A program made the position numbers and the translations under genes. This document shows, piece after piece, positions 17,711 through 62,107 of a stretch of DNA of 64,000 bases (within the stretch, counting starts at the first letter, position 1; each line of letters opens with the position of its first letter). The notes beneath the pieces are model-generated. The model was not told the origin of the DNA. It saw only the letters and a list, made by a program, of their open reading frames with translations, and ran no database searches. Origin of the DNA: a virus. The stretch covers positions 1 through 64,000 of the IMG/VR virus record IMGVR_UViG_3300034071_000719; one strand, given 5' to 3'.

Positions 17711-17718
17711 ACTGAGAA

Positions 17719-37799: not shown

Positions 37800-38117
37800 A
37801 TGACAACAGAAATCAATCAACTAGTTGCCCGAATTAAGCAAGCAACAGATTATCAAACAAACAAACGCATACTTAGAGAAAAAATACAAAGTGATTTGCA
37901 TTTTACACTTAGTGGTGGGCTATTCAAGGCCACTCCTGAACTAATAGCATTTCTAAACTTATATGACTTGTACGAAATGGTTATAGAAGATACCTATCAA
38001 AATCCAATTAAAGTTAATAGAATAGCAATGTTAGAGTTAGCTAAACAGCATTATCAAATGGCTATGAACGCATGGCATATACAACACGAAGAACTTAAAC
38101 GTGCAAGAAAAGTCTAA
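37800..38117 (+). CDS. Hypothetical protein
   Basis: 105-aa ORF overlapping the next gene; no recognised motif. Confidence 0.7.
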   Translation: MTTEINQLVARIKQATDYQTNKRILREKIQSDLHFTLSGGLFKATPELIAFLNLYDLYEMVIEDTYQNPIKVNRIAMLELAKQHYQMAMNAWHIQHEELKRARKV

Positions 38118-38862
38118 AGGTGTAATACTATTTGCAGTTAACACAGACACCGTCGATTACGTTAAAATCGCGGAGCAGGCCGCACGACTAATAAAACACA
38201 CATTAAATCTACCAACTACTATTATAACAGATACTGGTGTTGAATCAATTGGTAATATTCGTACTGGTCATGCAAGTGGAACACAATGGAAAAATGGTGG
38301 TAGATATCGTGCATATGAACTTAGCCCGTATGATGAAACTATATTGCTTGATAGTGATTATTTACAGTTAGATACTAGTCTAATAGATATACTCGATACA
38401 ACAGTTGATTACAAGCTAATGCATCACAATCAAAGCCCTACAATGTCAATGTCGGGCAACATGGGTCAACTAAGTTTAGATTATGTATGGGCAACTGCTA
38501 TAACATTTAAACGTACCAATAAAACAAAAGCATTGTTTGAATTAGTGGGCAGAATTGAACGCAACTATGCCTACTATCGCAAACTATATCACATTAGAGA
38601 ACGCAACTTCCGCAATGATTACGCATTTGCAATTGCAAACAATATTATTAGCGGTTACACTACTGACCTTGCACAAAGTATCCCTTTTACTATGTTAACC
38701 ATTGATAAACTAGTCAAAAACATTGAAATAACAGGCGAAAAGATGATTATACGTGAAGAAAATATAGCGCATGTCATTGCCAAGCAAAACGTACACATAA
38801 TGGATAAAGATTACTTATTAAGTGCAGACTTTGACAAATTGGTGGATACAATATGCGCATAA
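38101..38862 (+). CDS. GT-A fold glycosyltransferase-like protein
   Basis: YELSPYDETILLDSDY (DxD) and FRNDYAFAIA motifs. Confidence 0.7.
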   Translation: MQEKSKGVILFAVNTDTVDYVKIAEQAARLIKHTLNLPTTIITDTGVESIGNIRTGHASGTQWKNGGRYRAYELSPYDETILLDSDYLQLDTSLIDILDTTVDYKLMHHNQSPTMSMSGNMGQLSLDYVWATAITFKRTNKTKALFELVGRIERNYAYYRKLYHIRERNFRNDYAFAIANNIISGYTTDLAQSIPFTMLTIDKLVKNIEITGEKMIIREENIAHVIAKQNVHIMDKDYLLSADFDKLVDTICA

Positions 38863-39707
38863 CACCACATCAAGCACAGCAAGGCTTTATGACCATTGCA
38901 CAAAACACAGCAGACGTTGATTATTTACGTCTCGCTTACGTACAAGCAATGAGCATTAAACTAACAATGCCCGGTAGCTTGTATGCAGTAGCAGTTGATA
39001 AAAATACATTAGAGCAAGTAACAGAACAACATCGTAAAGTGTTTGATTATGTAATTACAATTGAAAATGACTTAGCGCAAGACGAAACTTGGAAGTTAAG
39101 TAACGAGTGGCAAGCATTTTATCTCACACCATTCAAAGAAACAATTAAACTTGAAAGCGATATTGTGTTTACAAGAAGCATTGCACACTGGTGGACTGCT
39201 TTTAGATTAAAAAATGTTGTACTAAGCACAGGCTGTAGAGATTATAAGCAAGAGTTAAGTAACTCACGTGAATATAGAAAGTTGTTTGATGATAACGAAT
39301 TACCCGATACCTACAATGGACTAATGTATTTTAGGTACACAAGAGAAGCAACACAGTTCTTTACACTAGCAGAACAAATATTTAAAAACTGGGCGTATCT
39401 ACGTGATAATGTATTACTTAACTGTCGCGACGATAACCCAACTACTGATGTTGTTTATGCGTTAACTGCAAAGTTAATTGGCGTAGAAGATTGTACATTG
39501 TCGATGGACTTTATTAACTTTGTGCATATGAAACCTGCTATTAACAAGTGGACAAGTACGCCGTGGCCCGAATTAGTAATGTGCGAAACAGATTTGCCAA
39601 TGGTACGTATAGCAAATACAAATCAATATCATCCGATTCACTATCACGAAAAGAGTTGGGTAACTGATGCATTAGTTAAGGAGTACGAAGATGAATTCAG
39701 AAGATGA
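38853..39707 (+). CDS. GT-A fold glycosyltransferase-like protein, paralogue of the upstream gene
   Basis: LTPFKETIKLESD (ExD), YNGLMYF, TDVVYAL, FVHMKP, IHYH.K. Confidence 0.68.
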   Translation: MRITPHQAQQGFMTIAQNTADVDYLRLAYVQAMSIKLTMPGSLYAVAVDKNTLEQVTEQHRKVFDYVITIENDLAQDETWKLSNEWQAFYLTPFKETIKLESDIVFTRSIAHWWTAFRLKNVVLSTGCRDYKQELSNSREYRKLFDDNELPDTYNGLMYFRYTREATQFFTLAEQIFKNWAYLRDNVLLNCRDDNPTTDVVYALTAKLIGVEDCTLSMDFINFVHMKPAINKWTSTPWPELVMCETDLPMVRIANTNQYHPIHYHEKSWVTDALVKEYEDEFRR

Positions 39708-40041
39708 ATTAGCTAAAGCATTTGCAATGATACAACCTATCATAGAAGAAGTTAAAGAATACAGAATACACTATGAAGAAGATGGGCACATTACAATGTG
39801 TACAATGATAAATCACCCAGATGATACAACATATATCGTTGTTAGCAAAGATGAATACGACAACTACTTCCGCTATACAATTGTAGATGGTAAGCTGAAA
39901 AAGATTGACAACAACCCCGGTATTCGTGTACAATTAGTAAGTAGCTCCGAGGGTTATGCTGTAGTAAAGAAACATGCTGGATTAATATTAGAACCAACCG
40001 ATACTTACAATGAGATTGAATACTATGACACAAATCGTTGA
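39691..40041 (+). CDS. Hypothetical protein
   Basis: 116-aa acidic ORF with an AAGGAG RBS, overlapping both neighbours. Confidence 0.7.
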   Translation: MNSEDELAKAFAMIQPIIEEVKEYRIHYEEDGHITMCTMINHPDDTTYIVVSKDEYDNYFRYTIVDGKLKKIDNNPGIRVQLVSSSEGYAVVKKHAGLILEPTDTYNEIEYYDTNR

Positions 40042-40921
40042 TATTGCAGATTTAGACTGCATCTACCTAAGTTATGATGAGCCAAAAAAAGAAGAGTTTT
40101 GGATTAAGATTCAAAATATGGTTCCGTGGGCTAAACGTGTAGATAGTGTTAAAGGCAGTGATGCCGCACATAAAGCAGCCGCATCTGCAAGTGATACTGA
40201 ACGCTTTGTATTAATCGATGGCGACAACTTACCCGACCCAGAGTTCTTTAACTTACAACTTACATTAGATGATACTAATAAAGATGTAGTCTTTCGTTGG
40301 AAGGCACGTAACATCATTAATGGCTTACAGTACGGTAACGGTGGTATGAGTTGCTGGACTAAAGAATTCATCAATAATATGCGCACACACGAAGCAAGCA
40401 ACGGTGATGATGATACTGCCGTTGAGTTTTGCTTTGACCCACGCTATTGGGCAATGAATGATTGCTACAGCACAACATACCCAAATCAAAGTCCATATCA
40501 AGCGTGGAGAGCTGGCTTTAGAGAAGGCGTTAAGATGTGTTTAGATCGCGGCACTAAGCCAAATCTATTAGATTTTGAGAAGCGTGTACATGATCGGAAC
40601 TACGATCATTTAAGCATATGGCATAATGTAGGCATGGACGTAGAGAATGGTGACTGGGCAATGTACGGTGCTAAACTTGGCACATATATGACTATGATTA
40701 CAGATTGGGATTATAGAGAAGTACAAGACTTTGATGCATTGGATAAAATTTGGCATCAAAACAAAGTACTAAACTTAGTAGAAGAATGCAATGAAATGTC
40801 ACATACATTAAATGTAAAATTAGGATTACCCGCACCACATTTAACAGCAGACCAAAGTAAATTCTTTAAATATCATTACAAGAGTATGTTTAAGAATAAA
40901 GGAGTAATGTATCGTGAATGA
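40025..40921 (+). CDS. GT-A (GT2-like) glycosyltransferase
   Basis: IYLSYDEP, AHKAAA, FVLIDGDN (DxD), NGLQYGNGG, AWRAGFREGVKM. Confidence 0.68.
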   Translation: MTQIVDIADLDCIYLSYDEPKKEEFWIKIQNMVPWAKRVDSVKGSDAAHKAAASASDTERFVLIDGDNLPDPEFFNLQLTLDDTNKDVVFRWKARNIINGLQYGNGGMSCWTKEFINNMRTHEASNGDDDTAVEFCFDPRYWAMNDCYSTTYPNQSPYQAWRAGFREGVKMCLDRGTKPNLLDFEKRVHDRNYDHLSIWHNVGMDVENGDWAMYGAKLGTYMTMITDWDYREVQDFDALDKIWHQNKVLNLVEECNEMSHTLNVKLGLPAPHLTADQSKFFKYHYKSMFKNKGVMYRE

Positions 40922-41537
40922 TTTAACTATTTCGCCGTGGCATGTTCTAAATATAGATATTAGTAATGCTATACGAGAAGATTTTGATTTTAATAATTTA
41001 ATCAATGAATCAACTATCCGTGATTTATGGCCATATAATCGAGAAACAATAAGTGAGCTATTCTCTGCTGAATGGTTAGCTTATATGAATGAGATTGGAT
41101 TACCACCGGATTCTGCTACTATCTTTTATAGATCTCCATTCTTTGAAGAATCAATGGCGCACGTTGATTTATTCCAAAATCCAATTCGTCCAGCAGTATT
41201 TGCATTAAATTGGGTAGTAAGTGAAGGGGACGACAGCGAAATGATTTGGTTCGATACTCCTGACACCCCAGGTGAATATATTATGTACGATGCAACTGAA
41301 GTTGGATCTCGTAATATGTCTTGGCCGATGTCATCGTTTGATGGTAAACACATGTACCGTAGAACATTAGGTAAACAGTTAACTTTAGTAGCAACAGGTA
41401 GGCCACATAATATTATTGTTAATAAGATTCCTCGTTGGTGCATAAGTGTACGTTTTTCTACTAGAACATTTAATATTCAGTCATGGGAAGAAGCAATTGC
41501 GCACTTTAGCAAATTTATAGTTAAGGCACCAGAATAA
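40914..41537 (+). CDS. Possible 2OG-Fe(II)/cupin-fold oxygenase
   Basis: HVD...ALNW...PHN...RWCISVRF arrangement (HxD...H...RxxxSxR). Confidence 0.45.
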   Translation: MNDLTISPWHVLNIDISNAIREDFDFNNLINESTIRDLWPYNRETISELFSAEWLAYMNEIGLPPDSATIFYRSPFFEESMAHVDLFQNPIRPAVFALNWVVSEGDDSEMIWFDTPDTPGEYIMYDATEVGSRNMSWPMSSFDGKHMYRRTLGKQLTLVATGRPHNIIVNKIPRWCISVRFSTRTFNIQSWEEAIAHFSKFIVKAPE

Positions 41538-42206
41538 ATGTTAATAACTTACGGAAGTAATAAACCGTTATGTCTGATTGGTGTTCCAAAATCAGTAATG
41601 ACACAAGAAGGATTATTTTATCTTGAGAACGGATATAATGATCCAGATCACACAGCAGGACCAATTACAGTAATCACTCCAGAAGAATTTTTGGCATTAA
41701 ATGATAAAACTGTATATCAATATTGTGTAGTGTTTACACTTGATACAGTTGCTAGAACAAATATAATTAATATTTTAGAAGAGCAACAACTAGATTGCTT
41801 TAGTTATGTACATCATACATCGGTGATACGCAACGATATTGCAATAACTGAAGTTATTGGACACGGTAGTTTTCTGTGCTCATTTAATACAGTTATGATG
41901 GGCGCAACCATCGGAAAACATTGCATATTAGAAACATATTGCCTTATATCACATTATAGTACATTAGCGGATAATGTTATTATACATTCGGGCACATTGA
42001 TTGCTGGTAAAACTAAAATCGGTAGCGGGTGTATATTTAATTTTAAAGCAGCCTCACTTAATGCATTAACAATATGTGATGGTGTTGAAGTGGGTGCATT
42101 AAGTACAGTCACTAAAGACATAGCTGTATCGGGACGATACATGGGTTCGATTGCACGATATGTGGGACCTCTAATTATATTTCAAGACCCGGGAACAACA
42201 GGATAG
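41538..42206 (+). CDS. Hexapeptide-repeat sugar acetyltransferase (NeuD/PglD-like)
   Basis: Left-handed beta-helix repeats (VIGHGS, TIGKHC, KIGSGC), ISH, GALSTVTKDI...G.YMG. Confidence 0.8.
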   Translation: MLITYGSNKPLCLIGVPKSVMTQEGLFYLENGYNDPDHTAGPITVITPEEFLALNDKTVYQYCVVFTLDTVARTNIINILEEQQLDCFSYVHHTSVIRNDIAITEVIGHGSFLCSFNTVMMGATIGKHCILETYCLISHYSTLADNVIIHSGTLIAGKTKIGSGCIFNFKAASLNALTICDGVEVGALSTVTKDIAVSGRYMGSIARYVGPLIIFQDPGTTG

Positions 42207-42208
42207 TT

Positions 42209-42901
42209 ATGTATAAATCATGGCCATTGGCCCCAACATATGAATGGCGACGCCGAGAATTAGATCAATTAACTGCACAAGGTTATGTGTGGAATTCTCC
42301 ATCAGATGTAATTGATCTATTTGAAAAGAAAGTAGCTACTTTTGCGGGCAGTAAATATGCAGTAGCAATTGATTGTTGTTCACATGGTATATTTCTTGCA
42401 TTAAAATATCTCAAAGCATTTGGCCCAATAGATGTCCCAGCACGTACATATATATCAGTACCGGCGCAAGTTATCCATGCTGGGTGCAGTGTTAATTTTA
42501 CACAAGAAGAATGGACTGGTGTATATCAATTAACTCCGTATCCTATTTTTGATGGAGCAGTGCGTTGGCAAAAGGATATGTACAAGGGTGGGTTCCATAT
42601 ACTATCATTTCAGATTAAAAAGCGTATACCAATCGGCAAAGGCGGCATGATTCTAACTGATGATATAGATGCATACAATTGGCTTAAACGAGCTAGTCAT
42701 GATGGTAGAACATTTGGCGTTAATTTTGATCAAGATACAGTTGAAATGATAGGCTGGCACTATAATATGACTCCCGAAGATGCTGCAAGAGGTATTATGC
42801 TAATGGACCAAACAGCTGATTTCAATGAAGATTCGGGCAATTATAAATCGTACACCGATTTGTCACTATTGTCAATTTTTACAAAAACAACGGAGAAGTA
42901 A
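42209..42901 (+). CDS. DegT/DnrJ/EryC1/StrS aminotransferase, short form
   Basis: FEKKVA...KYAVAIDCCSHG, VPARTY, IFDGA, SFQIKK...GKGGMILTDD, GWHYNM. Confidence 0.8.
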   Translation: MYKSWPLAPTYEWRRRELDQLTAQGYVWNSPSDVIDLFEKKVATFAGSKYAVAIDCCSHGIFLALKYLKAFGPIDVPARTYISVPAQVIHAGCSVNFTQEEWTGVYQLTPYPIFDGAVRWQKDMYKGGFHILSFQIKKRIPIGKGGMILTDDIDAYNWLKRASHDGRTFGVNFDQDTVEMIGWHYNMTPEDAARGIMLMDQTADFNEDSGNYKSYTDLSLLSIFTKTTEK

Positions 42902-43935
42902 TGAAAGTAGATATGCAAAAACATTGGGGCAGTAAAGAACTTTATTACGTGCCCGAGTTGATTTCTAAAATAATTCATAGTATGCAAACAGATGGAACGG
43001 TATATCTATTCACTAATGAAGGAAAAAATGGTGCCAACAATGGTTTGTATAAATTATTAGATGACTTGTGCTTGTACTGGAAATGGGACAAGTCGGCTAT
43101 TACAATAGAAACATCAAACTTTATGCCTACTTCATGGTTAACAACAGAATTATTGCCAAACTATGGTAGTAGCCACCCTGACTATAATATAAAACGCACT
43201 TCGCTTAATATGATGGCGGCATATATGGATATTACTAGTAAAATATATTCATGGAATAAAGAAAAATATTACGGAATGTTTATTGCTCGTGCATCATCCG
43301 ACAGGATTTACGCTGCACATGCTCATACAAAATTTAAATTTAAGGAAATGGGGCTAACAAGTTTTAGAGAAAATTTATTCGAATATATGAGTTATCCTGA
43401 TCTAGTAGATTACTTTATGCATTCAAATCAGACATACAAAGAAATGCTAGAAGTTGTGCCACACAGTGATATAGAAGAGTTAATCCCGTCTCCGAATTCG
43501 CCATTAATTACTCCGCCGTATAATACCAGTGATTGGGGTAAGGTATACGAAAAAATAGCCATTGATATTGTATGCGAAACTAGTACTGAACCAAATTGTG
43601 GTGATGTGTCAGAGAAAGTATATCGCCCATTGTATTATAAACGACCGTTTTTATTAATTGGCTCACCGGGGCAATTTGCTATTCTGCATGAGTTAGGATT
43701 TAAAACATTTGATGGGATAATCGACGAATCCTACGATAAATTAACCGGAGTTGCTCGTGTCAATAAAGTATTTGAAATATTAGAACAATTAATTTTAGAC
43801 AACAGAATGGATACGCTGTTAGATGAATGTAAAGAAATACTTGAACATAACCATAAACAAATGATTCGATTATCTATTGAACATAGAGTAAAGCATAGAG
43901 ACGAGCTAAAAAAATTGATGGATAACGATGAGTAG
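42901..43935 (+). CDS. Putative GT-B glycosyltransferase-like protein (GT10-like motif)
   Basis: IDIVCET...VSEKVYRP...RPFLLIG...LGFKTF...DESYD. Confidence 0.45.
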   Translation: MKVDMQKHWGSKELYYVPELISKIIHSMQTDGTVYLFTNEGKNGANNGLYKLLDDLCLYWKWDKSAITIETSNFMPTSWLTTELLPNYGSSHPDYNIKRTSLNMMAAYMDITSKIYSWNKEKYYGMFIARASSDRIYAAHAHTKFKFKEMGLTSFRENLFEYMSYPDLVDYFMHSNQTYKEMLEVVPHSDIEELIPSPNSPLITPPYNTSDWGKVYEKIAIDIVCETSTEPNCGDVSEKVYRPLYYKRPFLLIGSPGQFAILHELGFKTFDGIIDESYDKLTGVARVNKVFEILEQLILDNRMDTLLDECKEILEHNHKQMIRLSIEHRVKHRDELKKLMDNDE

Positions 43936-54464: not shown

Positions 54465-54540
54465 TCGTGTTAAATTAGAAATACGTTATCGTAAGAAACT
54501 TAAAGAATTGCGTAAGCGCGATCCATTTATCTATAAATGA
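54439..54540 (+). CDS. 33-aa basic peptide MNWLLNIINRVKLEIRYRKKLKELRKRDPFIYK (absent from the ORF track)
   Basis: AGGAAG RBS upstream; fills the gap between two SGNH genes; its stop overlaps the next start (ATGA). Confidence 0.75.
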   Translation: MNWLLNIINRVKLEIRYRKKLKELRKRDPFIYK

Positions 54541-55082
54541 TTTTAGTAAACGGCGATAGTTTTACTGCTGGTGAAGAAAGTGATATTGCCTGGCCGGAGT
54601 TAATTGCTGATACTGTAAATATTGCTGTACCTGGTGCTAGCAATGATTATATACTTAGATCAACAGTTGATTATGTAGATAATAATAAAGTTGATTATGT
54701 AATAATAGCGTGGACTAGCCCCAATCGAATTGAATTACCAAACAAACACCTAACATCTGCTAGTTATAAGAAGTATGGACCAGTGGTTAATAGTGTATTT
54801 GCTGAATGGGATACAGAGTGGGCATATAAGAAATTTATTGCGCAAACTAAATTATTAGATTGTTACTTAACAATGCCGCATTTGTTTGTAAGTACATTTG
54901 ACATACAAACAGTGGCACAAGGTAGTGGGTTAGATTGTTGGCTAGGCTGGCCACACGAAGGATTAGTAGAGTGGATGGGCAACTGTCTAAAAGGTTCTGG
55001 TGGACACCCACTGGAATTAGGACATCAACGAATAGCGGAAAAAATCAATGAACATATTAGGCATCTCGGCTGGGTTTCATGA
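54537..55082 (+). CDS. SGNH-like protein
   Basis: NGDSFTAG, PGASND, WTSPNR.E, GHPLELGH. Confidence 0.72.
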   Translation: MILVNGDSFTAGEESDIAWPELIADTVNIAVPGASNDYILRSTVDYVDNNKVDYVIIAWTSPNRIELPNKHLTSASYKKYGPVVNSVFAEWDTEWAYKKFIAQTKLLDCYLTMPHLFVSTFDIQTVAQGSGLDCWLGWPHEGLVEWMGNCLKGSGGHPLELGHQRIAEKINEHIRHLGWVS

Positions 55083-56538
55083 CGCAGCAATTACATTAAT
55101 CAAAGGCGATGATATTGTCTTTGCAGGTCACGCTGAACGTTATAGCAAAATTAAACACGACCCAAACTTAAACGTTGAAATGCTCAGAGATTGTATATTC
55201 AATTATGGCGAACCTGATTTAATTGCATATTATGAAAGACCGTGGGTTAAAAAGACACGACAACTTTATGCTGGACAATACAGTGAACTAACTAAAGGAT
55301 GGAGTGTACGCAACATGATACACAAAGTCGCTCCGTGGTTAAGTTCTACTCCAATCAAAACATACAATCATCACCTATCACATGCGGCCGCTGGCTTTCA
55401 AACTAGCCCGTTTGATGATGCAACAGTTGTTGTAATTGATGCAATTGGCGAGTGGGATACTATTAGCATATGGTCTGCAAAATATGTCAATGGTAAGGCA
55501 CAATATACAAGAGTGTGGCGCCAATTATACCCACACAGCATCGGCTTAATGTACAGTGCATTTACTAAAGAAGTTGGCCTACGTCCGCTAGATGAAGAAT
55601 ACATTTTAATGGGCATGGCGGGCTGGGCAAAACAAGACACAACACGTTTAAGTGACCAACTTTCAAATTGGTTAGTTGACCACGAGTTTGAGCTAACATT
55701 AAAACATAACTTACATATCGGTCTACCCGACAATGATATAAAAGCAAAATGGAATGACTTTGAGATTGCTAATGCGGCTCAGACATTAACAGAACAATTG
55801 ATACACAATATAATGTATAAAGCAAAAACACTAGCACCTAGTAGTAACTTGGTATACTCGGGCGGTGTTGCGCTTAACTGTAGTGCTAATAGAGATTTAG
55901 GAGAATATTTTGATAACATTTGGATTATGCCCAATCCTGGCGATGCTGGTAGTAGCCTCGGTGCTGCAGCGTTGGCGCACGGTAGCAAACTTAACTGGGT
56001 GGATGCTTTTCTCGGGCATAACATTACTGGCCCTTATCCCTGTACTGATATTGTATCTGCATTAATGACAAACAAGATTGTTGGCGTTGCCAATGGTCGT
56101 GCAGAATTTGGACCAAGAGCGTTGGGCAACAGAAGTTTACTAGCTGACCCACGCGGCCCTGATATTAAAGATGCTGTAAACTTAATTAAACGTCGTCAAC
56201 AGTTTAGACCATTTGCTCCTATAATACTAGAGGAGTTTGTTGATGAGTATTTTGAAATGCCCAATGGATTTAAAACAAGTCCGTACATGCAAACGACTGC
56301 AAAGTGCTTGCGTCCTAACGAATTTCCTGCTATAATACATATAGATGGTACAAGTAGAGTACAGACTGTTCCACGTGATAACAGTGGTATACGTGAACTA
56401 TTGTGTTTATGGTATACATGGACAGGTTGTCCGATGTTGCTTAATACAAGTTTAAATGTACGCGGTGAACCAATGGTAAATGATCGTGCCGATGCAGATC
56501 GCTTTGAAGAACTGTATGGAGTAAAGGTACTAAGTTGA
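55048..56538 (+). CDS. O-carbamoyltransferase (NodU/CmcH/TobZ family)
   Basis: ILGISAGFHDAA, ERYS..KH, HHLSHAA, DAIGE, GGVALNC, GDAG, EFGPRALGNRS, FRPFAP, DGTSRVQ, LNTSLN. Confidence 0.95.
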   Translation: MNILGISAGFHDAAITLIKGDDIVFAGHAERYSKIKHDPNLNVEMLRDCIFNYGEPDLIAYYERPWVKKTRQLYAGQYSELTKGWSVRNMIHKVAPWLSSTPIKTYNHHLSHAAAGFQTSPFDDATVVVIDAIGEWDTISIWSAKYVNGKAQYTRVWRQLYPHSIGLMYSAFTKEVGLRPLDEEYILMGMAGWAKQDTTRLSDQLSNWLVDHEFELTLKHNLHIGLPDNDIKAKWNDFEIANAAQTLTEQLIHNIMYKAKTLAPSSNLVYSGGVALNCSANRDLGEYFDNIWIMPNPGDAGSSLGAAALAHGSKLNWVDAFLGHNITGPYPCTDIVSALMTNKIVGVANGRAEFGPRALGNRSLLADPRGPDIKDAVNLIKRRQQFRPFAPIILEEFVDEYFEMPNGFKTSPYMQTTAKCLRPNEFPAIIHIDGTSRVQTVPRDNSGIRELLCLWYTWTGCPMLLNTSLNVRGEPMVNDRADADRFEELYGVKVLS

Positions 56539-56951
56539 AAATATTAATTATGGGATTGCCTGGGTCAGGTAAAACGACCCTCGCTAGCGCACTATTAAAA
56601 TTAATAGATTGTGTATGGTATAATGCCGATGCAGTTAGAAAAAATTACAATGATTGGGATTTTTCTGAAGAAGGCAGACTACGTCAAGCAACACGTATGA
56701 AAACGTTAGCTGATGATAGCAAAGGTCATGTTATATGCGACTTTGTTGCGCCTACTAAAGAGATACGTGATATATTTGATGCCGACTATGTTATATGGGT
56801 CGACACAATTAAAAAAGGTAGATTTAAAGATACAAATAAAGTATTCGAACCACCAACACAATACGACATGCGAGTAATAGAACAAGATGCTGAACGTTGG
56901 GCAACTATTATTGCACATGCCATTTCTATAAAGGAATTAAATGAAAGATAA
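56535..56951 (+). CDS. Adenylylsulfate (APS) kinase-like P-loop kinase
   Basis: IMGLPGSGKTTLA, NADAVR, DFSEEGRLRQ, DFVAP, FEPP; TTG start overlapping the upstream stop. Confidence 0.7.
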   Translation: MKILIMGLPGSGKTTLASALLKLIDCVWYNADAVRKNYNDWDFSEEGRLRQATRMKTLADDSKGHVICDFVAPTKEIRDIFDADYVIWVDTIKKGRFKDTNKVFEPPTQYDMRVIEQDAERWATIIAHAISIKELNER

Positions 56952-57441
56952 AATGAAATTAGCACACATGCGCACTGCATTTAATTATGCGGCATGTTCG
57001 AGTGCTGTACGCTTACAAGTTGGGTCAATCATTGTTAAAGATGATGCAATTATCTCTATAGGATACAACGGTCAGCCAAGTGGTTGGGATAACGTGTGTG
57101 AAGAACGAGAATACATGGCAAGTGATGCTGGTGGTTGGCTTGACCCAGATGAAATAGAATCACAGTGGCCATTTGTTGCCGAAGATCAACTTAGATACAG
57201 ATTGAAAACAAAATCAACTGTACTCCACGCAGAGTCAAATGCTATCTCAAAACTTGCTAAACTAAATGGTGGAGCACAAGGTTCAGCAATCTTTATTACA
57301 CATTGCCCTTGCTTAGATTGTGCAAAAACAATTTATCAAGCTGGTATTACAGAAGTGTATTATGCACAATCATACCGCGATACAATAGGCGCTGACTTTT
57401 TAATTAAATGTGGATTAACAGTAGAACAAGTACATGTTTGA
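56941..57441 (+). CDS. cd: dCMP deaminase
   Basis: RLQVG, SIGYNG, HAESNAI and PCLDC zinc motifs. Confidence 0.92.
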   Translation: MKDKMKLAHMRTAFNYAACSSAVRLQVGSIIVKDDAIISIGYNGQPSGWDNVCEEREYMASDAGGWLDPDEIESQWPFVAEDQLRYRLKTKSTVLHAESNAISKLAKLNGGAQGSAIFITHCPCLDCAKTIYQAGITEVYYAQSYRDTIGADFLIKCGLTVEQVHV

Positions 57442-60052
57442 TGTGTTTTATAAAGGCGCAAAGCCTAACCTATTTCCTTTTGAACTGCCCGCCGATACAT
57501 TAGAAGAAGCCGCAAGTTTAAGTCGTACTAAGTTCTTTTGGTTCATCGATGGGCAGAATGATTACAATGGATTTGATTTTAATTTCCGTGCAGTACCATG
57601 GGAAGAGCATCAAATACACACTTGGCCAAACCAATGGCAAGTAGATGGCGGCACATACTTTGCTAACAAGTATACTATCCAAGATAAAACACATAACTTT
57701 CATACAGAAACATATACACATCGTTTGCCTAATTTAGATTTCTGGCACATACCCGCTAATATAGATTCTAAAAGTATTAATACAAGATGGGCACCTGACC
57801 CGTTAGATCCGCCTTACATATATCAGTTTCCTGTTAAGTGGGGATGGGATAAAATTGGTGGCCCAGAGTATCGTGTACCTGGTGCAACCGAAATTAAGTT
57901 TGTAGATGATTTCTCTGCTCGTACACTTAGCGATATGTCATTGTGGAATGTACCTGCTAACATTGATAAAGAATCATTTGATTTTAGTTGGGCACCTCAC
58001 CCGGCAGAAGAGCCATACATATATAAATTTCCAACAGTATGGAATGCAGTTGGCGGACCAGAATATCGTGTACCCGGTGCTACAAAAGAAAAGTATATTG
58101 ATGTTGTAGTAGCACGTACATTGCCAGATCGTACACTGTGGACTATACCAGAAGAAGTTAATGCAGATACTGTAGACTTTGGCTGGGTTCCTCATCCGCA
58201 AGACCCTCCTTACATATATCACTTTGGCACAGAATTTCAATCAAGCATTGGCTTAACATATACAATGCCGGACGCAACCGAAGTTAAATTTGCTGGACCT
58301 ATTCCGGAATTAGGACAGCACGATAATCCAGTATTACAAGTGTTAGACATATTCTTTATTGATAAGAGTAATGCCAGTTCTACTGCACGTTACGAAAAGT
58401 TAATTGAACAGTATCCACATGCACAAAAGATACGTTATGTTAATTCGATGATTGATACAATTAAACGTTGTATCGTACGTACAAAGACAAGTAAGTTTTG
58501 GGTTATTAGTAGTGAAAATATCTACGATGACTTTAACTTTGCGTGGCATGCGCAACCGTGGCAAAGTTATATGACACATGTATTTGGTTCACAACATCAG
58601 AAGTGGAGTGACACATACTTAATTAATAAATGGGAATTTGAACGTACAACTACTTGGGCAAACAGCTTAGAGGAATTTCCAAACCTTAACTTCGTACAAG
58701 ATCAAAGTATTGTAATTCCAGATAACTTACATGATATTTACTTTGTAGATCACGGTAACGAAAATGATCAACTTGAACAATTACAAAAGAAACATACCGA
58801 CATTAAAATAACACGCTATGTTGACAACTATCTCGATACCTTTAAACGTATTATGTCAACTGCAACAACAGAACATGTGTGGATAATTAGTAGCCTATGT
58901 GATTACACACGCTTTGACTTTAGTTGGCAACCCGAGCCGTGGCAGAAAGAAATGATACATGTGTTTCCAAGTAACAATCAGGAACGCGGTGACACATTCT
59001 ATATACATGTAGAAAGTTTTAAACTGCAAATGGTTGAGCTTGCATTATTAGATTGGTTTAATGTTATTAACTACTGTAAAGAACAACGTGTACCACGTCT
59101 ACCTATTCCTGTAGTTGAATACAGTGGCGACAACTTAATTGAAGTAATTAAGTCGCATGAATTTAACCATCCGTTTACATGGTTTTATAACTACAAGCTG
59201 GGTGTAGTGTATAACCCGAGCATTTGGTATGCAAAAGACCGTCAAATCGTTGGTTTTTCAGCCGGAAATAGCTATGTTTTGGTGCCTAGAGACGCCAAAT
59301 CTGTTATCAATACACAGGCATACGATTATCCGTATATTACTAAAATGCCTATGTTTAATGAACATGCACTAGATATTATCTATATTAGTAACGGTGAACC
59401 CGAAGCCGAAAAATGGTACAAACATTTAATTAGTACAGTAGATCAAACACGTAGATCAGTTAGACGTGTACAAAATGTTAATGGGCGAGCCAACGCATAC
59501 AAAGCGGCCGCTGAATTAAGTGAAACTCCATGGTTCTTTGCTGTGTTTGCTAAGTTAGAAGTTGTTGAAGACTTTGATTGGGAGTGGCAACCCGACTACT
59601 TGCAAGGTCCTAAGCACTACATATTCCATGCCAAAAATCCAGTCAACGGATTAGAGTATGGACACATGGGTGTAATTGCGTATAACAAGCGTTTAGTGCT
59701 TGAAACAAACGATAGTGGACTTGACTTTACACTAAGCAAAGCACACGCTGTAGTACCTGTATTAAGTGCTATAGCGCATTATAACACTACACCAGAGCTA
59801 ACATGGCGTACTGCATTTAGAGAGTGTATTAAACTACGTGATGATGTACGTAAAGTTGCCGGAGTTGAGAGTGATTACAGACTTGATGAGTGGTTACATA
59901 AAGCAGAAGGTGCTAATGCAGAATGGAGCATTAAGGGCGCAGAAGATGCAATTATGTACTACGATGAAGTCGATGGTGATATGGATAAACTAATGCTGAC
60001 GTTTGAATGGGATTGGCTAAAACAGTATTACGCTACCAAGTACACTCTTTAA
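57434..60052 (+). CDS. Multi-domain glycosyltransferase-like protein with internal repeats
   Basis: Several GT-A-like segments (FFWFIDG, FWVISS, VWIISS, FFAVFAK); the C-terminal domain resembles 40025..40921. Confidence 0.6.
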   Translation: MFDVFYKGAKPNLFPFELPADTLEEAASLSRTKFFWFIDGQNDYNGFDFNFRAVPWEEHQIHTWPNQWQVDGGTYFANKYTIQDKTHNFHTETYTHRLPNLDFWHIPANIDSKSINTRWAPDPLDPPYIYQFPVKWGWDKIGGPEYRVPGATEIKFVDDFSARTLSDMSLWNVPANIDKESFDFSWAPHPAEEPYIYKFPTVWNAVGGPEYRVPGATKEKYIDVVVARTLPDRTLWTIPEEVNADTVDFGWVPHPQDPPYIYHFGTEFQSSIGLTYTMPDATEVKFAGPIPELGQHDNPVLQVLDIFFIDKSNASSTARYEKLIEQYPHAQKIRYVNSMIDTIKRCIVRTKTSKFWVISSENIYDDFNFAWHAQPWQSYMTHVFGSQHQKWSDTYLINKWEFERTTTWANSLEEFPNLNFVQDQSIVIPDNLHDIYFVDHGNENDQLEQLQKKHTDIKITRYVDNYLDTFKRIMSTATTEHVWIISSLCDYTRFDFSWQPEPWQKEMIHVFPSNNQERGDTFYIHVESFKLQMVELALLDWFNVINYCKEQRVPRLPIPVVEYSGDNLIEVIKSHEFNHPFTWFYNYKLGVVYNPSIWYAKDRQIVGFSAGNSYVLVPRDAKSVINTQAYDYPYITKMPMFNEHALDIIYISNGEPEAEKWYKHLISTVDQTRRSVRRVQNVNGRANAYKAAAELSETPWFFAVFAKLEVVEDFDWEWQPDYLQGPKHYIFHAKNPVNGLEYGHMGVIAYNKRLVLETNDSGLDFTLSKAHAVVPVLSAIAHYNTTPELTWRTAFRECIKLRDDVRKVAGVESDYRLDEWLHKAEGANAEWSIKGAEDAIMYYDEVDGDMDKLMLTFEWDWLKQYYATKYTL
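57743..58300 (+). repeat. Three ~65-aa tandem repeats
   Basis: W.IP..(I/V)...W.P.P.(D/E).PYIY.F.....GPEYRVPGATE.K units starting at 57743, 57944 and 58139. Confidence 0.85.
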
Positions 60053-61124
60053 TAGCATCAACAACTGCTTCAACTTCTGCATCAGTCATCTCAGGATAGA
60101 TTGGTAAACTCAAACACGTTTTACTAAACTGTTCTGCTCCAACTAATACTTCGTGTCCGCCAATTACGCCCATCATGTGCAATGGTGCAGTATAATGTAT
60201 CTTAGTTTCTATGCCCATTGCATGTAAATCTGAGAATAAGCGTGAACGTTCTGGATAGTGTATAACAAACTTATGCCAAGCATGTTCGACATTATGATGT
60301 ATAGGAATCATCTGCACTGGCCCATCTAATTCTTCTGTGTAGTATTCTGCAATGTTCTTACGACGCTGTTGCCACGCATCAAAATGCCGTAACTTAACTA
60401 ACATCTGAGCACAATCAACCTCACTCATTTTGCTGTTAGTACCAACAGTGTAATGTTCCGATACCTTACCGTTATCACGCATATTAAGACATAGTTCAGC
60501 AAACTCGGCATCATCAGTTAGTATCATTCCACCACTGCCATAGTTAGGAAAATTCTTAGTCGGGTCAAAACTTAAACAACTAATGTCGCCTAACTTGCCA
60601 CTCGGAACGCCACGATAATAAGCACCAAACGATTGTGCCGCATCTTCGATTACAGGTATGCGATGACTATTAAAGAACGTAACATACGTTTGTAACTTAT
60701 CGTAGTCAATAATATTACCAAACAAGTTAACGTACATAACAGCCGCAATTTCATCTGGCTCTACCGGTATACTATCGAGATTAATTAACCCTGTTATAGG
60801 GTCAACATCACAAAACACAGGCTCAAATCCAGCTTCGAATACAACATTAACTGTAGCGGCAAAACTTTGACTAGGGATTAGCACTTTATTTTTATGGAAT
60901 AAAGAATAGAAGTCAATAGCTCGTAAAGCAAAGACAAGTGCCTGGGTACAACTATTAACAGCGACAGCATACTTACGTTCTGTTAAGTTAGCAATAGTCT
61001 GTTCAAACGTTTTAGTGTATTGCCCATCTAATACTTGCCCACCGGAATACACCACGTCGGTTACATCAAGTATCTCCTCACGGATTGTTTTATATTGTCG
61101 ATCTACACCAAAGAATGGAATCAT
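60033..61124 (-). CDS. DegT/DnrJ/EryC1/StrS sugar aminotransferase, full length
   Basis: AVAVNSCT.AL, IEDAAQSFG, SFDPTKN...GSGGMILTDD, GTNSKM, LSLPIYP. Confidence 0.93.
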   Translation of the reverse strand: MIPFFGVDRQYKTIREEILDVTDVVYSGGQVLDGQYTKTFEQTIANLTERKYAVAVNSCTQALVFALRAIDFYSLFHKNKVLIPSQSFAATVNVVFEAGFEPVFCDVDPITGLINLDSIPVEPDEIAAVMYVNLFGNIIDYDKLQTYVTFFNSHRIPVIEDAAQSFGAYYRGVPSGKLGDISCLSFDPTKNFPNYGSGGMILTDDAEFAELCLNMRDNGKVSEHYTVGTNSKMSEVDCAQMLVKLRHFDAWQQRRKNIAEYYTEELDGPVQMIPIHHNVEHAWHKFVIHYPERSRLFSDLHAMGIETKIHYTAPLHMMGVIGGHEVLVGAEQFSKTCLSLPIYPEMTDAEVEAVVDAIKECTW

Positions 61125-62107
61125 AGCGGAAGTTGGTCACGCCAGTAAGGAGAGAATTTAAACCACTCATGATAACGAGCAAATCCTTCTTCTACGTTAA
61201 CTGTTGGATTGTACCCAAAGTCCGCAACTGCACTAGTAATGCTTAATCTACCACGTGTTGGAAATGCTAAATCACGTTCTGCAACTTCGATACTACCTTT
61301 ACCTGCAATGCTTACAGCAAGTTTAGCGGCATCAAGCAATGTATATTCTGCTTCTGATGAACGTGTAATATTGTAAATTCTATTGTTGGCATTATCGCTT
61401 AATGCGGCTTGAGCAATGCCCATTGCAGTATCTTCAACGTATGTAAAGTCTAGCACCTCATTGGCACCTTTAACTTTTAATACTTCACCACGCATTGCCG
61501 CAAGCATAAACTTACTAACAACTCTATCTTCGATATCCCACGGACCGTATACAGCACTTGGGCGAATGATAGTATGCGCAAAGCAGCCACGGCGAGTATA
61601 ATCAGCTACAAGTTTCTCGCCCATATACTTCATAATGCCGTATTGCCCAATTGGATTACAATCAACATACTCGTCGACACCATCGAACAAGCCATCTTTA
61701 AAGTCACCATATATCATTGAACTGCTAATGTACACAAACTTCTTAATGTTATAACGTGCGCTTGCTTCAAGTAAATTGATTAGGCCCGTGGTCATTACTT
61801 CTGACCCAAGTATTGGATTTTGGCTTACTACATTTTGTCGTGGAAAGCTAGCGAGATGTATTACTAACTCTGGACGTACTGCGCTAAAAATACTGTCGAT
61901 ATGATTAACGCTACATATATCAGTATGTATGACACGTGAGTTAAAACGTTCTTTACGTGAAGATTTAAGATAATTCAATTCCTTTTTTGGTATAAAGCCA
62001 TAGTCTGTTGTAGTGTCAACGACGATGCACTCATGCCCTTGCTGTTCTAATATGCGAGTTACATTATGTCCGATAAACCCTGCACCGCCTGTGATTATTA
62101 TTTTCAT
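61121..62107 (-). CDS. NAD-dependent nucleotide-sugar epimerase/dehydratase
   Basis: TGGAGFIG, VIHLA, SSSMIYG, YGIMK (YxxxK), R...VYGP, DFTYVED. Confidence 0.93.
   Translation of the reverse strand: MKIIITGGAGFIGHNVTRILEQQGHECIVVDTTTDYGFIPKKELNYLKSSRKERFNSRVIHTDICSVNHIDSIFSAVRPELVIHLASFPRQNVVSQNPILGSEVMTTGLINLLEASARYNIKKFVYISSSMIYGDFKDGLFDGVDEYVDCNPIGQYGIMKYMGEKLVADYTRRGCFAHTIIRPSAVYGPWDIEDRVVSKFMLAAMRGEVLKVKGANEVLDFTYVEDTAMGIAQAALSDNANNRIYNITRSSEAEYTLLDAAKLAVSIAGKGSIEVAERDLAFPTRGRLSITSAVADFGYNPTVNVEEGFARYHEWFKFSPYWRDQLPL

Follow-up and report, generated by a model that had tools for sequence, protein, structure and literature searches.

What do the genes of a block of about 24 kb, lying directly 3' of the tail-fibre genes of an uncultured jumbo phage from lake water, make, and to which molecule would the product be attached? 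The block lies in the window, the 64,000-nucleotide stretch analysed here (IMG/VR record IMGVR_UViG_3300034071_000719, positions 1 to 64,000), and an initial annotation had read it as a cluster for the assembly and tailoring of a glycan. The first part of the answer is likely to be a pathway that builds and edits sugars, as suggested by the putative GT-A proteins, an amino-sugar set, a carbamoyltransferase, SGNH-like proteins and the cassettes of relatives. For the second part, the virion is the leading guess.

Layout, linkage and insertion of the block

Positions 37800-60052 form a single, tightly coupled plus-strand operon of 24 genes, counting a 33-aa open reading frame, in which 21 of the 23 gene junctions overlap. 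A convergent pair on the minus strand (60033-62107) follows downstream. The open reading frames and coordinates of the initial annotation proved correct, as did its description of a coupled operon with a convergent epimerase-type SDR and a second DegT. The cluster also starts, as claimed, directly after Ser/Thr-rich fibre genes, since the fibre-like proteins upstream of the operon contain 21-26% Ser+Thr. All cluster proteins were scanned and none has a hydrophobic or membrane segment; the pathway is therefore taken to be cytoplasmic.

For comparison, 26 loci were used. The last fibre-module gene and the operon genes for proteins matching no family are:

36782..37720, plus strand: Ser/Thr-rich protein of 312 aa (26% Ser+Thr), final gene of the fibre module and candidate acceptor or partner; no PHROG, Pfam or Atlas family
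37800..38117, plus strand: conserved protein of 105 aa, operon gene 1; 36-57% identity, 21 of 26 loci
39691..40041, plus strand: conserved protein of 116 aa; 20 of 26 loci
40914..41537, plus strand: variable protein of 207 aa; 1 of 26 loci only

The linkage to fibre genes was borne out in the relatives. In all loci with enough flank the block stands directly behind the fibre module, and the order fibre gene 35147, 36782, 37800, 38101, 38853, 39691, 40010 and onwards is kept; the same backbone order recurs in the deep relatives G006 and G008, where backbone proteins are 27-40% identical. Wherever the cluster occurs, the deep relatives (28-30% identity) included, the gene of the 36782-37720 protein immediately precedes the operon. 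In the cluster-less sister lineages G010-G012 the fibre genes run straight into ThyA, and the whole block is absent together with the 36782-37720 gene. Here the block includes the SDR gene and ends before ThyA at 62384. Judged from these gene orders, one clade of freshwater jumbo myoviruses gained the block (about 36.8-62.1 kb) by insertion at a site between the tail-fibre module and ThyA.

The backbone comprises two glycogenin-like GT-A proteins, a GT-A-fold transferase, five core N-twitch radical SAMs, a 390-aa protein, two SGNH-like proteins, the 33-aa peptide, a carbamoyltransferase and a kinase. The plug-in cassettes here are two extra radical SAMs, an N-acetyltransferase, a short DegT, a GT10-like protein and the convergent DegT and SDR; those of relatives include UDP-Glc/GDP-Man dehydrogenase, an AMP-binding enzyme, an amidoligase, a class-III aminotransferase and a kinase-cytidylyltransferase-like fusion. 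Near-identical DNA is present in lake metagenomes from at least 14 studies, and in a freshwater RNA library some contigs match the window exactly, both over fibre genes and over radical SAM genes.

Predicted enzymes of sugar assembly and editing

The candidates for chain assembly, initially counted as four to five GT-like proteins, are:

38101..38862, plus strand: GT8 (glycogenin)-like GT-A candidate with DxD (D84, D86)
38853..39707, plus strand: GT8 (glycogenin)-like GT-A candidate, E-S-D replacing DxD
40010..40921, plus strand: predicted GT-A-fold glycosyltransferase with a helical C-terminal domain
42901..43935, plus strand: member of a variable multi-copy family, GT10-like as a lead only
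57434..60052, plus strand: 872-aa repeat protein with GT-A-half-like modules

The first three count as GT-A-type proteins. The 40010-40921 protein models as a GT-A fold (AF2 pLDDT 85, pTM 0.84): its best Foldseek matches are the GT-A enzymes PBCV-1 A64R, ThuS and RmlT, and VIA aligns it with B4GALNT1 (Z 10.3, rmsd 3.1, 142 aligned). Its D70-G-D72 is invariant, and Ralstonia phage RsoM2USA encodes a homologue of 41% identity. The 38101 and 38853 proteins are paralogues (hhalign E 3e-17). Against the PDB, the profile of the latter matched glycogenin-1 (E 0.006) and a joint profile matched glycogenins only (best E 0.0015, the alignment running through DxD), weak scores that place the family tentatively in GT8.

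The remaining two fit the count less well. The 872-aa protein holds three WxPxPxxPPYIYxFP repeats and three GT-A-half-like modules (internal repeats up to E 6e-34), and its C-terminal domain is homologous to the 40010 family (hhalign 96.8%, E 2.5e-10) but lacks DxD. The 42901-43935 protein has no Pfam or PDB sequence match, and its possible GT10 identity comes from the nearest named Atlas clusters (0.79) and from a TEK-type motif in which E238-K239 are invariant. Its family occurs in relatives in one to three copies at varying positions, and is fused in other phages with epimerase/GDP-Man dehydratase or methyltransferase.

The amino-sugar enzymes are:

41538..42206, plus strand: predicted left-handed beta-helix sugar N-acetyltransferase, variable cassette (Hexapep Pfam 3e-10)
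42209..42901, plus strand: short DegT-like protein of 230 aa, variable cassette (DegT 9.7e-15 in two stretches)
60033..61124, minus strand: full-length DegT aminotransferase (PseC-like), convergent (DegT 3.8e-86)
61121..62107, minus strand: SDR NDP-sugar epimerase/dehydratase, convergent (Epimerase 4.8e-41)

Profile matches support a set for an N-acetylated amino-deoxy sugar, consisting of the SDR, the PseC-like DegT and the NeuD/PglB-type acetyltransferase. At the level of specific families these matches stay under the cut-offs: the acetyltransferase reaches 7e-27 against NeuD/PglB/VioB, the convergent DegT 2.6e-57 against PseC, and the SDR is closest to dTDP-glucose 4,6-dehydratase (5.4e-34). 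The acetyltransferase occurs in 2 of the 26 loci, and the PseC-like gene is variable among relatives. The plus-strand DegT retains its family assignment and the Schiff-base Lys (SFxxxK), but turns out to be a short form with an internal deletion and no C-terminal domain.

The genes of the radical SAM array are:

43928..45313, plus strand: N-twitch radical SAM 1, core (NF033640 283.6 bits; 56-74% identity, 26 of 26 loci)
45300..46460, plus strand: N-twitch radical SAM 2, accessory cassette (285.5 bits; true orthologues in few loci)
46447..47781, plus strand: N-twitch radical SAM 3, core (291.3 bits)
47778..49112, plus strand: N-twitch radical SAM 4, core (387.9 bits)
49102..50313, plus strand: N-twitch radical SAM 5, core (352.3 bits)
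50310..51347, plus strand: N-twitch radical SAM 6, accessory, shortest (174.2 bits)
51340..52626, plus strand: N-twitch radical SAM 7, core (289.5 bits; 62-83% identity in relatives)

All seven, as initially annotated, are radical SAMs: each falls in NCBIfam NF033640 (N_Twi_rSAM; 174-388 bits, cut-off 170 bits) and keeps four N-terminal Cys, CxxxCxxC and GGEP, with both Fe-S motifs present. We know of no member of NF033640 with a characterised reaction. A lake DNA contig joining 45313 to 46447 represents a variant without radical SAM 2, and radical SAM 6 finds matches in relatives at the paralogue level only. Radical SAM 3 is 51% identical to RsoM2USA_202, and radical SAM 4 has more than 7,500 homologues among metagenome proteins (E<=1e-10), on contigs of up to 361 kb.

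The other tailoring genes are:

52604..53776, plus strand: conserved 390-aa protein without assignable family; predicted barrel, loosely cyclophilin-like, with a helical insertion
53754..54464, plus strand: SGNH-like protein A
54439..54540, plus strand: conserved basic micro-protein of 33 aa, C-terminal RKRDPFIYK
54537..55082, plus strand: SGNH-like protein B, profile match to a GDSL-family protein (4rsh) at 2.6e-4
55048..56538, plus strand: NodU/CmcH-family carbamoyltransferase (Carbam_trans_N 1.5e-38, Carbam_trans_C 1.7e-48)
56535..56951, plus strand: truncated P-loop APS-kinase-like kinase of 138 aa (phrog_10255 'kinase' 5e-31)
56941..57441, plus strand: dCMP/cytidine deaminase-family protein within the operon (dCMP_cyt_deam_1 3.3e-19)

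Profile searches thus matched the acetyltransferase, radical SAMs, carbamoyltransferase, APS-kinase-like protein, convergent DegT and SDR named at the outset. The two SGNH proteins are weak-score calls: both keep GDS...N...ExxH, they are paralogues (hhalign 99.8%) and protein B has its GDSL profile match, but neither matches Pfam. RsoM2USA_203 and RsoM2USA_201 are homologues of protein A, and RsoM2USA_199 is 46% identical to the carbamoyltransferase, which scores 146 bits against the NodU equivalog, far under its cut-off of 1000. The kinase covers positions 2-108 of the 230 in its profile; in relatives it measures 263-278 aa and is fused to a C-terminal HxGH / ISATKIRK cytidylyltransferase-like domain. 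No sulfotransferase was found, and with the kinase truncated the proposed analogy to Nod-factor sulfation is weak. The 390-aa protein (AF2 pLDDT 84, pTM 0.82) finds cyclophilin-type barrels in a VIA-wide search at a middling best Z of 8.4, no PDB match by Foldseek at E<=0.001 and no match in phages by tblastn.

Promoter and destination of the product

The operon is preceded by one regulatory element:

37724..37779, plus strand: predicted sigma-70-type promoter TTGACA-17-TAAACT, then a hairpin; motif conserved in relatives

The -35, the spacing and the -10 are kept, with a varying spacer sequence, across about 17 relatives as well as in G006 and G008. Directly after the promoter, a 10-bp hairpin and T-run (37753-37779) are of terminator type, and the promoter overlaps this terminator of the fibre genes. 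In G001, a 97%-complete relative, this promoter class lies upstream of replication genes (primase, SSB, exonuclease, dNMP-kinase), and structural genes have a T4-late-like ATAAATA motif instead. With its own sigma-70-type promoter, of the replication-gene class, the operon is thus not to be read simply as a portion of the late fibre operon. By these signals it is insulated from late fibre transcripts, unlike the prediction for a simple virion-maturation module.

The virion as target is favoured by the position directly behind the fibre module and by the co-occurrence with 36782-37720, absent from cluster-less sisters, although a single acquisition event may also account for the latter. The replication-class promoter counts against it, as do homologues away from fibre genes: RsoM2USA has a mini-module only (SGNH, radical SAM 3, SGNH, unknown, carbamoyltransferase), whose annotated surroundings include no structural genes, and T4-like marine phages carry carbamoyltransferase homologues among replication or metabolic genes.

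The same promoter class would suit remodelling of the host envelope, in which soluble enzymes expressed from an early/middle promoter would alter a host glycolipid or surface glycan at the cytoplasmic membrane face, so that superinfection is blocked or progeny are kept from sticking to debris. LPS-core chemistry of P. aeruginosa and enterobacteria employs GT8-type transferases, kinases and a carbamoyltransferase, and by analogy the corresponding proteins of the block, as peripheral enzymes, might make an LPS-core-type oligosaccharide. Cyanophage sets of GT, epimerase, DegT and radical SAM genes have likewise been read as host-surface modification (PMC12801897). Yet the cluster holds no initiating transferase, flippase, polymerase or membrane segment, which weakens the classical host-surface polysaccharide offered initially as an alternative, and the strict linkage to the fibre module and 36782 also speaks against an envelope role. 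We know of no envelope pathway with arrays of twitch radical SAMs, and consider this explanation unlikely.

Quite unlikely, too, is a secondary metabolite aimed at the host or competing phages, either a free carbamoylated amino-sugar compound (aminoglycoside- or nucleoside-like) or a glycopeptide on the Tyr-tailed micro-protein. Clusters for aminoglycosides and nucleoside antibiotics, which the block resembles in gene content, typically contain NodU/CmcH carbamoyltransferases, DegT, BtrN-type twitch radical SAMs, kinases and a cytidine-deaminase-family gene; the radical SAM array has weak profile similarity to BlsE, viperin, MoaA and BtrN, and the promoter is early-type. However, the likeness to antibiotic enzymes is at superfamily level only, and the cluster lacks an exporter, a resistance gene and any enzyme that would form a scaffold, for instance a cyclitol synthase. 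A glycopeptide would be consistent with the micro-protein being 67-88% identical in every locus covering its position, a higher conservation than that of most enzymes in the block, and with its PFIYK end, the P(Y/F)IY motif of which occurs three times in the 872-aa protein. The 40010 protein resembles the glycocin S-glycosyltransferases ThuS and SunS. Glycogenin, to which the two GT8-like proteins show similarity, is an enzyme that glycosylates a Tyr; but the peptide gene adjoins the carbamoyltransferase, not the radical SAMs.

Hypermodification of a phage DNA base against restriction by the transferases and tailoring enzymes, the other alternative initially raised, is highly improbable: it could draw on the promoter class, the deaminase-family gene and P-loop kinase inside the operon, the adjacent ThyA and the precedent of glycans built on DNA by phage GTs (Pyle et al. 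2024, as cited in PMC12619734), but it is weakened by a ThyA that is canonical (passing thymidylate-synthase equivalog cut-offs), the ancestral neighbour of the insertion site in cluster-less relatives and the single ThyA-family gene of G001, by a deaminase found at this position in only 10 of 26 loci, and by normal assembly of the phage from many Illumina metagenomes. A Tet/JBP search gave no match, but its control gave none either, which makes the search uninformative.

Proposed pathway and acceptor

The whole of the preferred reading, an oligosaccharide pathway together with a virion target, is put forward tentatively, as a plausible rather than a probable account. The block would encode a self-contained route, entirely cytoplasmic, for building and editing an oligosaccharide. 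SDR, DegT and acetyltransferase would supply an N-acetylated amino-deoxy NDP-sugar, from which, with host NDP-sugars, the transferases would assemble a short chain. Each radical SAM would make one C-H-based edit at a different position, possibly epimerisation, dehydrogenation, deoxygenation or C-C/C-X bond formation, and acyl, carbamoyl and phosphate-type groups would be attached or taken off by the SGNH proteins, the kinase, and the carbamoyltransferase together with its peptide. Synthesis of the enzymes would begin in early or middle infection, ahead of the late structural proteins, and the likeliest acceptor would be a virion protein, in the first place the Ser/Thr-rich 36782-37720 protein, or the neighbouring fibres.

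The gene block and its predicted enzymes

The glycan assembly cluster proposed in the initial annotation comprises 24 co-oriented ORFs between 37800 and 60052, including one of 33 aa, with overlaps at 21 of the 23 junctions, and a convergent gene pair behind them. Genes are named here by their start coordinates or as follows:

36782-37720 (+), 312-aa Ser/Thr-rich protein, last gene of the fibre module
38101 and 38853 (+), paralogous transferase-like proteins
40010-40921 (+), GT-A domain protein
42901-43935 (+), member of a multi-copy variable family
43928-52626 (+), seven radical SAM proteins, rSAM1 to rSAM7
52604-53776 (+), strictly conserved 390-aa protein
53754-54464 (+), SGNH-like protein A
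54439-54540 (+), 33-aa peptide
54537-55082 (+), SGNH-like protein B
55048-56538 (+), carbamoyltransferase
56535-56951 (+), kinase
56941-57441 (+), dCMP-deaminase-family protein, confirmed by HMM
57434-60052 (+), 872-aa repeat protein
60033-61124 (convergent), DegT aminotransferase
61121-62107 (convergent), SDR
62384-63232 (-), ThyA

Profile searches bore out several of the proposed enzyme assignments. The acetyltransferase is a hexapeptide enzyme of the NeuD/PglB/VioB type, and the convergent pair encodes a full-length PseC-like DegT protein and an SDR closest to dTDP-glucose 4,6-dehydratase. The plus-strand DegT protein keeps the Schiff-base lysine, but is a short form of 230 aa. No family assignment was found for 36782, 37800, 39691 and 40914.

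The seven radical SAM proteins all belong to the curated family NF033640 (N_Twi_rSAM), with scores of 283.6, 285.5, 291.3, 387.9, 352.3, 174.2 and 289.5 bits for rSAM1 to rSAM7 against a whole-protein cut-off of 170 bits. Membership was also confirmed at the DNA level, and none of 14 control genomes contains a member above the cut-off. Invariant in all seven are four N-terminal cysteines (twitch), followed by C157/C161/C164 (CxxxCxxC) and a GGEP motif; Pfam SPASM matches fall at the N-terminus. The closest solved structures (viperin, SkfB, BlsE, MoaA and BtrN) are superfamily-level matches with E-values of 1e-7 to 1e-2. Neither a characterised NF033640 member nor literature on an N-terminal twitch family was found, and a search with a single radical SAM protein retrieved no relatives among genome contigs. 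NF033640 is a catalogued but uncharacterised family. Models of RiPP maturases score far below their cut-offs on these proteins, and the sole small conserved peptide (54439-54540), considered for a precursor position, sits between the SGNH genes, upstream of the carbamoyltransferase gene. An eighth radical SAM protein lies outside the cluster, at 74618-76627 (+) of the whole record (14618-16627 of locus L001); this 669-aa ORF matches PF04055 with 53 bits and is not of the NF033640 type.

Four to five glycosyltransferase-like proteins had been proposed, of which three are supported as transferases, one is a pseudo-transferase domain and one is a lead. The best case is 40010, with 61-71% identity the best-conserved gene of the operon head. 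Its AF2 model (pLDDT 85) combines a GT-A domain with a helical domain, and VIA-align matches it to B4GALNT1 (Z 10.3, rmsd 3.1, 142 residues) and to many other GT-A structures over residues 9-165; matches at Z 8.5-8.9 were likewise obtained for IspD-type nucleotidyltransferases, which share this fold. Foldseek places GT-A enzymes at the top, the capsid glycosyltransferase A64R of PBCV-1 first, and the DxD motif (D70-G-D72) is invariant across 20 orthologues. The paralogues 38101 and 38853 (E 3e-17) have only Mannosyl_trans3 (E 0.063) as a match in Pfam. Their joint profile retrieves 19 PDB sequences, all of them glycogenins, at a best E-value of 0.0015 and with the DxD motif aligned, and with moderate confidence both may be regarded as GT8 (glycogenin)-like transferases. 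At its C-terminus, the 872-aa protein carries a domain homologous to 40010 in which the DxD motif has been lost. Finally, 42901 is GT10-like by a language-model (Atlas) feature score of 0.79, which is a lead only; no member out of 24 in its family reaches E<=0.1 against PF00852, and the family profile has no match among PDB sequences. A TEK-type motif is conserved in this family, and fusions to epimerase or methyltransferase domains occur in other phages.

Among the decorating enzymes, the carbamoyltransferase is the clearest, with both Pfam domains present (Carbam_trans_N 133.6 and Carbam_trans_C 164.9 bits, cut-offs 24 and 27). It reaches 146 bits against the NodU equivalog NF041651 (cut-off 1000), and by these scores is classed as a member of the NodU/CmcH superfamily rather than as a NodU orthologue. 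The two proteins annotated as SGNH are clear paralogues (hhalign 99.8%), in which the GDS of block I and the N of block III are invariant, and block V reads ExxH instead of the DxxH of SGNH (E214/H217 in protein A, HPLELGH in protein B). One of the two family profiles matches a GDSL structure in the PDB (2.6e-4) and the other none; neither protein matches a Pfam family.

The kinase has a P-loop and is APS-kinase-like by HMM, as annotated, but its 138 aa cover only positions 5-90 of the 152 of the APS_kinase profile, its TIGR00455 score is 23.9 bits (cut-off 138.7), and no sulfotransferase or sulfurylase was found among the cluster proteins scanned. With a partial domain, a score below the equivalog cut-off and no sulfate partner, an identity as APS kinase (CysC) was rejected. 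In many relatives the kinase has 263-278 aa and consists of the APS-kinase-like domain (1e-11) and a small domain resembling cytidylyltransferases (HxGH / ISATKIRK; Pfam match weak, 0.0035), which is either fused to the kinase or encoded after it (e.g., at 17217-18014 of locus L019 and 19867-20466 of locus L018). The window kinase is devoid of this domain, and no CTP_transf_like gene was found in the 79.6 kb of the record. This arrangement points to a predicted role in activating a phosphorylated substrate rather than in sulfate chemistry.

The 390-aa protein 52604 is modelled at pLDDT 84; it has no Foldseek match at E<=0.001, and its best VIA-wide matches are cyclophilin-type barrels with Z 8.4, in the chance-level range. 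Invariant residues H145, H147, E149, H181 and E182 suggest a metal site. The 33-aa peptide ends in RKRDPFIYK and is 67-88% conserved in every locus that covers its place. Within the 872-aa protein there are strong repeats, three WxPxPxxPPYIYxFP units among them. P-(Y/F)-I-Y is found three times in this protein and again at the C-terminus of the peptide (DPFIYK), and may serve both as a common motif for docking or as an acceptor.

Backbone, cassettes and insertion site

The parent record of the window comprises 79,576 bases and is 23% complete according to CheckV, which would put the full genome at roughly 340 kb. The block is preceded by baseplate (PHROG hub and wedge) and fibre genes, and the baseplate wedge protein shares 35-37% identity with its counterparts in Atu_ph07, CBB and other Rak2-like jumbo myoviruses. 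Near-identical DNA is present in lake-water metagenomes from at least 14 studies, which identifies the phage as an uncultured freshwater jumbo phage. Megablast of the block against sequenced phages yielded nothing beyond one 40-base match. Between the wedge and the fibre genes, a single ORF of 4,255 aa occupies 17719-30486 (+), and homologues with 34-37% identity are found at the equivalent position in the distant relatives G006, G008 and G010-G012.

An IMG/VR scan with rSAM4 retrieved 26 loci with 53-83% identity, one of them on a 338.5-kb contig, and these were compared gene by gene. A fixed backbone emerged, which begins with the fibre gene 35147, 36782, 37800, 38101, 38853, 39691 and 40010, and continues with rSAM1, rSAM3, rSAM4, rSAM5, rSAM7, 52604, the SGNH pair, the 33-aa peptide, the carbamoyltransferase and the kinase. 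Cassettes are placed between the backbone genes. In the window these are 40914, the acetyltransferase, the short DegT, rSAM2, rSAM6 and the convergent DegT and SDR pair, while relatives carry a UDP-Glc/GDP-Man dehydrogenase, an AMP-binding enzyme, an amidoligase, a class-III aminotransferase and further radical SAM proteins. The cassette pattern supports a predicted glycan-diversity locus with nucleotide sugars as substrates. A natural variant was observed in a DNA contig of another lake metagenome (run X2), where 45313 is joined directly to 46447, i.e., the end of rSAM1 to the start of rSAM3; this contig without rSAM2 fits cassette gain or loss at duplicated junctions.

A second scan with the baseplate wedge added 80 loci, and ten of the longer parent records were searched for NF033640. 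Two deep relatives, G006 (306.7 kb) and G008, with wedge identities of 46-47%, contain 16 and 11 radical SAM matches, respectively. The G006 array, at 290588-305025 and 1240-17379, is the largest seen, and nine of its 16 NF033640-model matches exceed the cut-off; since it leaves the contig at one end and resumes at the other, the assembly is circularly permuted. In contrast to these cluster-bearing genomes, none of the four records G009-G012 (wedge identity 42-44%, 35-110 kb of downstream sequence) contains an NF033640 match. The gene order in G010-G012 is the giant ORF, 33120, two fibre genes and then directly a convergent ThyA (65% identical) with its neighbours, and hence the stretch from 36782 to 62.1 kb is absent there. 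Because ThyA follows the fibre genes in these cluster-less relatives, the gene was already next to the insertion site in the ancestral state and stands outside the system.

The operon head in G006 and G008 reads 35147, 36782, 37800, 38101, 38853, another gene and 40010, at only 27-40% identity to the window. The Ser/Thr-rich protein 36782 therefore co-occurs with and adjoins the block across a deep divergence, which may reflect a single acquisition.

Promoters and predicted timing of expression

The 79-base gap before 37800 contains TTGACA-17-TAAACT, and a 10-bp hairpin with a T-run comes immediately after it. In about 17 relatives as well as in G006 and G008, the -35 element, the 17-base spacing and a TAnnnT -10 element are kept, the spacer sequence varies, and the hairpin with its T-run overlaps the -10 element or comes directly after it. 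A start about 7 nt past the -10 element lies inside the 5' arm of the hairpin; accordingly, fibre transcripts would terminate here, while transcripts of the operon itself could not form the terminator.

The structural genes bear a different signal. Exact copies of TAAATACNNTATAACA precede 7194, 14306 and 17719, at 7165-7180, 14280-14295 and 17696-17711 (+), 14-24 nt upstream of the genes, and this element is probably a late promoter. In the 97%-complete relative G001, a T4-late-like ATAAATA is found about 24-34 nt before the start codons of the wedge gene, fibre genes and several other long ORFs. The same genome contains 69 sigma-70-type matches, 16 of which are intergenic and before genes, where about 3 are expected with 4% intergenic sequence. 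Ten genes downstream of such promoters were scanned, and the seven that could be identified code for a primase, SSB, two exonuclease/SbcC-type proteins, an endonuclease, a dNMP kinase and an NAD synthetase; none of the seven is structural. Since a sigma-70-type signal stands at the operon head and replication-type genes stand behind the same class in G001, we infer that the operon would be read from a host-RNA-polymerase (early or middle) promoter and be insulated from late transcription.

Elsewhere in the whole record, at 71279-74670 (-; about 11279-14670 of L001), five intergenic consensus sigma-70 promoters (three TTGACA-17-TATAAT, one TTGACT-16-TATAAT and one TTGACT-17-TATACT) are each located about 25-35 nt before a minus-strand gene (95-426 aa), and together they probably mark a block of early genes. 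A freshwater RNA library also contained sequence identical to that of the window, over fibre and radical SAM genes alike, in Logan contigs that speak to the presence of the sequence and for which DNA carry-over is possible.

Possible targets of the pathway, and related systems

That the block encodes a sugar pathway is well supported and appears likely. The complete proposal, in which this pathway modifies the virion, is held more tentatively, at somewhat below even chances. Judged from gene content and order, the virion is the leading guess for the target, given the position of the block behind the fibre genes and the co-occurrence of 36782.

Virion glycosylation by phage-encoded glycosyltransferases is known from mycobacteriophages (Freeman et al. 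2023, as cited in PMC12619734). The mycobacteriophage and giant-virus sets (PBCV-1 A64R, Mimivirus fibril sugars) place virus-encoded GT-A transferases beside structural genes, as is the case here, and the amino-deoxy-sugar set of Mimivirus viosamine or bacillosamine (dehydratase-like SDR, DegT and acetyltransferase) is also present in the block. Yet, the block is far larger and built around 5-7 radical SAM proteins, a carbamoyltransferase, SGNH proteins and a kinase. Moreover, the glycosyltransferases of the mycobacteriophage-type module are co-transcribed with the late operon, whereas the block is adjacent to the fibre genes but lies behind a terminator and its own sigma-70-type promoter.

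The carbamoyltransferase homologues of T4-like marine phages argue against a virion target, since they are not linked to fibre genes. As independent instances of such a linkage, P-SSM2 and HTVC008M were rejected: the former has its copy among replication and purine genes, the latter in a GT/methyltransferase/UDP-Glc-dehydrogenase group beside ribonucleotide reductase. The Ralstonia jumbo phage RsoM2USA, the closest cultured carrier, likewise speaks against the virion in that it holds only a mini-module. Its ORFs 199-203 encode a carbamoyltransferase (199, 46%), a protein of unknown type (200), two SGNH-like proteins (201 and 203) and an rSAM3 orthologue (202, 51%), and a 41% homologue of 40010 is located elsewhere in its genome. 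In contrast to the window, there is one radical SAM protein instead of seven, and GT8-like head genes are absent from the locus. The five ORFs are listed as hypothetical and go unmentioned in the genome paper.

GT, epimerase, DegT, carbamoyltransferase and radical SAM genes whose role is unknown have been described before from large aquatic myoviruses (PMC12801897). The “LPS / cell-wall synthesis and modification” clusters of cyanomyoviruses and pelagimyoviruses (P-SSM2, S-SCSM2R, Mosig and HTVC008M) share with the block GTs, NDP-sugar epimerases, DegT/AHBA-type aminotransferases, Nol-like carbamoyltransferases and radical SAM proteins of unknown purpose. These phages belong to another lineage, as the window baseplate is Rak2/Atu_ph07-like, their carbamoyltransferases are only 27-30% identical, and the position of the clusters varies, often among replication or metabolic genes. 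A conserved backbone that combines an N-twitch array with the 33-aa peptide is, apart from the mini-module of RsoM2USA, confined to the clade of the window. No paper was found that brings jumbo phages together with radical SAM proteins and a carbamoyltransferase, or that links these to cyanophages, and the “moraphage” paper (PMC12619734), which concerns a different lineage, makes no mention of radical SAM proteins. New here are the conserved backbone built on an N-twitch radical SAM array, its insertion behind the fibre genes and its dedicated promoter.

Modification of the host envelope is an unlikely alternative to the virion. No 19-residue window with a mean Kyte-Doolittle value of at least 1.6 occurs in the 27 proteins scanned between 37800 and 62439 (a crude predictor, with the 33-aa micro-protein outside the scan), and without hydrophobic segments the pathway would be cytoplasmic. 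Assembly of the Wzx/Wzy type thus seems unlikely, and the predicted proteins do not present the membrane initiating transferase, flippase or transporter, and polymerase by which Wzx/Wzy- or ABC-dependent polysaccharide loci are recognised. Action on a lipid-linked intermediate at the inner membrane face would still be compatible with a cytoplasmic pathway.

A small molecule or glycopeptide as the product is judged to be quite improbable, even though several features are in keeping with it: the conserved 33-aa peptide shares its P(F/Y)IY motif with the 872-aa protein, the GT8-like proteins resemble Tyr-glycosylating glycogenin, and 40010 resembles glycocin S-glycosyltransferases. In a similarly doubtful scenario, the operon would be an early or middle chemical factory that is not involved in virion maturation. 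The N-twitch radical SAM proteins would perform serial new C-H functionalisations on a sugar, either free or primed on the Tyr-tailed 33-aa peptide, and an abundant lytic freshwater phage would direct the resulting carbamoylated amino-sugar or glycopeptide against its host or competitors.

Hypermodification of the phage DNA is very improbable, since the window ThyA exceeds the thymidylate-synthase equivalog cut-offs and G001 contains one ThyA-family gene, so that the known handle for glycosylated or hypermodified pyrimidines was not found; a Tet/JBP (Tet_JBP) search gave no match but is uninformative, as its control matched nowhere. The adjacency of ThyA as a hint at DNA modification was ruled out, the gene being the ancestral neighbour of the insertion site.

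The virion remains the leading guess. Should the product indeed be attached to the fibres, no known phage-encoded virion glycan would be more elaborate, and it would matter for host recognition, for escape from decoys that bind phages and for the stability of the particle. Should the operon instead act on the host or yield a small molecule, it would represent a new kind of phage takeover or warfare function. The comparison of promoters and insertion sites narrows when and where to look, and RsoM2USA provides a cultured system for the mini-module. The phage clade is common in lakes, with near-identical DNA in metagenomes from at least 14 studies and with one radical SAM protein having more than 7,500 homologues among metagenome proteins, and the block takes up about 7% of a roughly 340-kb genome. 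With five to more than nine paralogues from a family with no known reaction in one conserved operon, the system offers an entry to new radical sugar chemistry or to a new post-translational modification.
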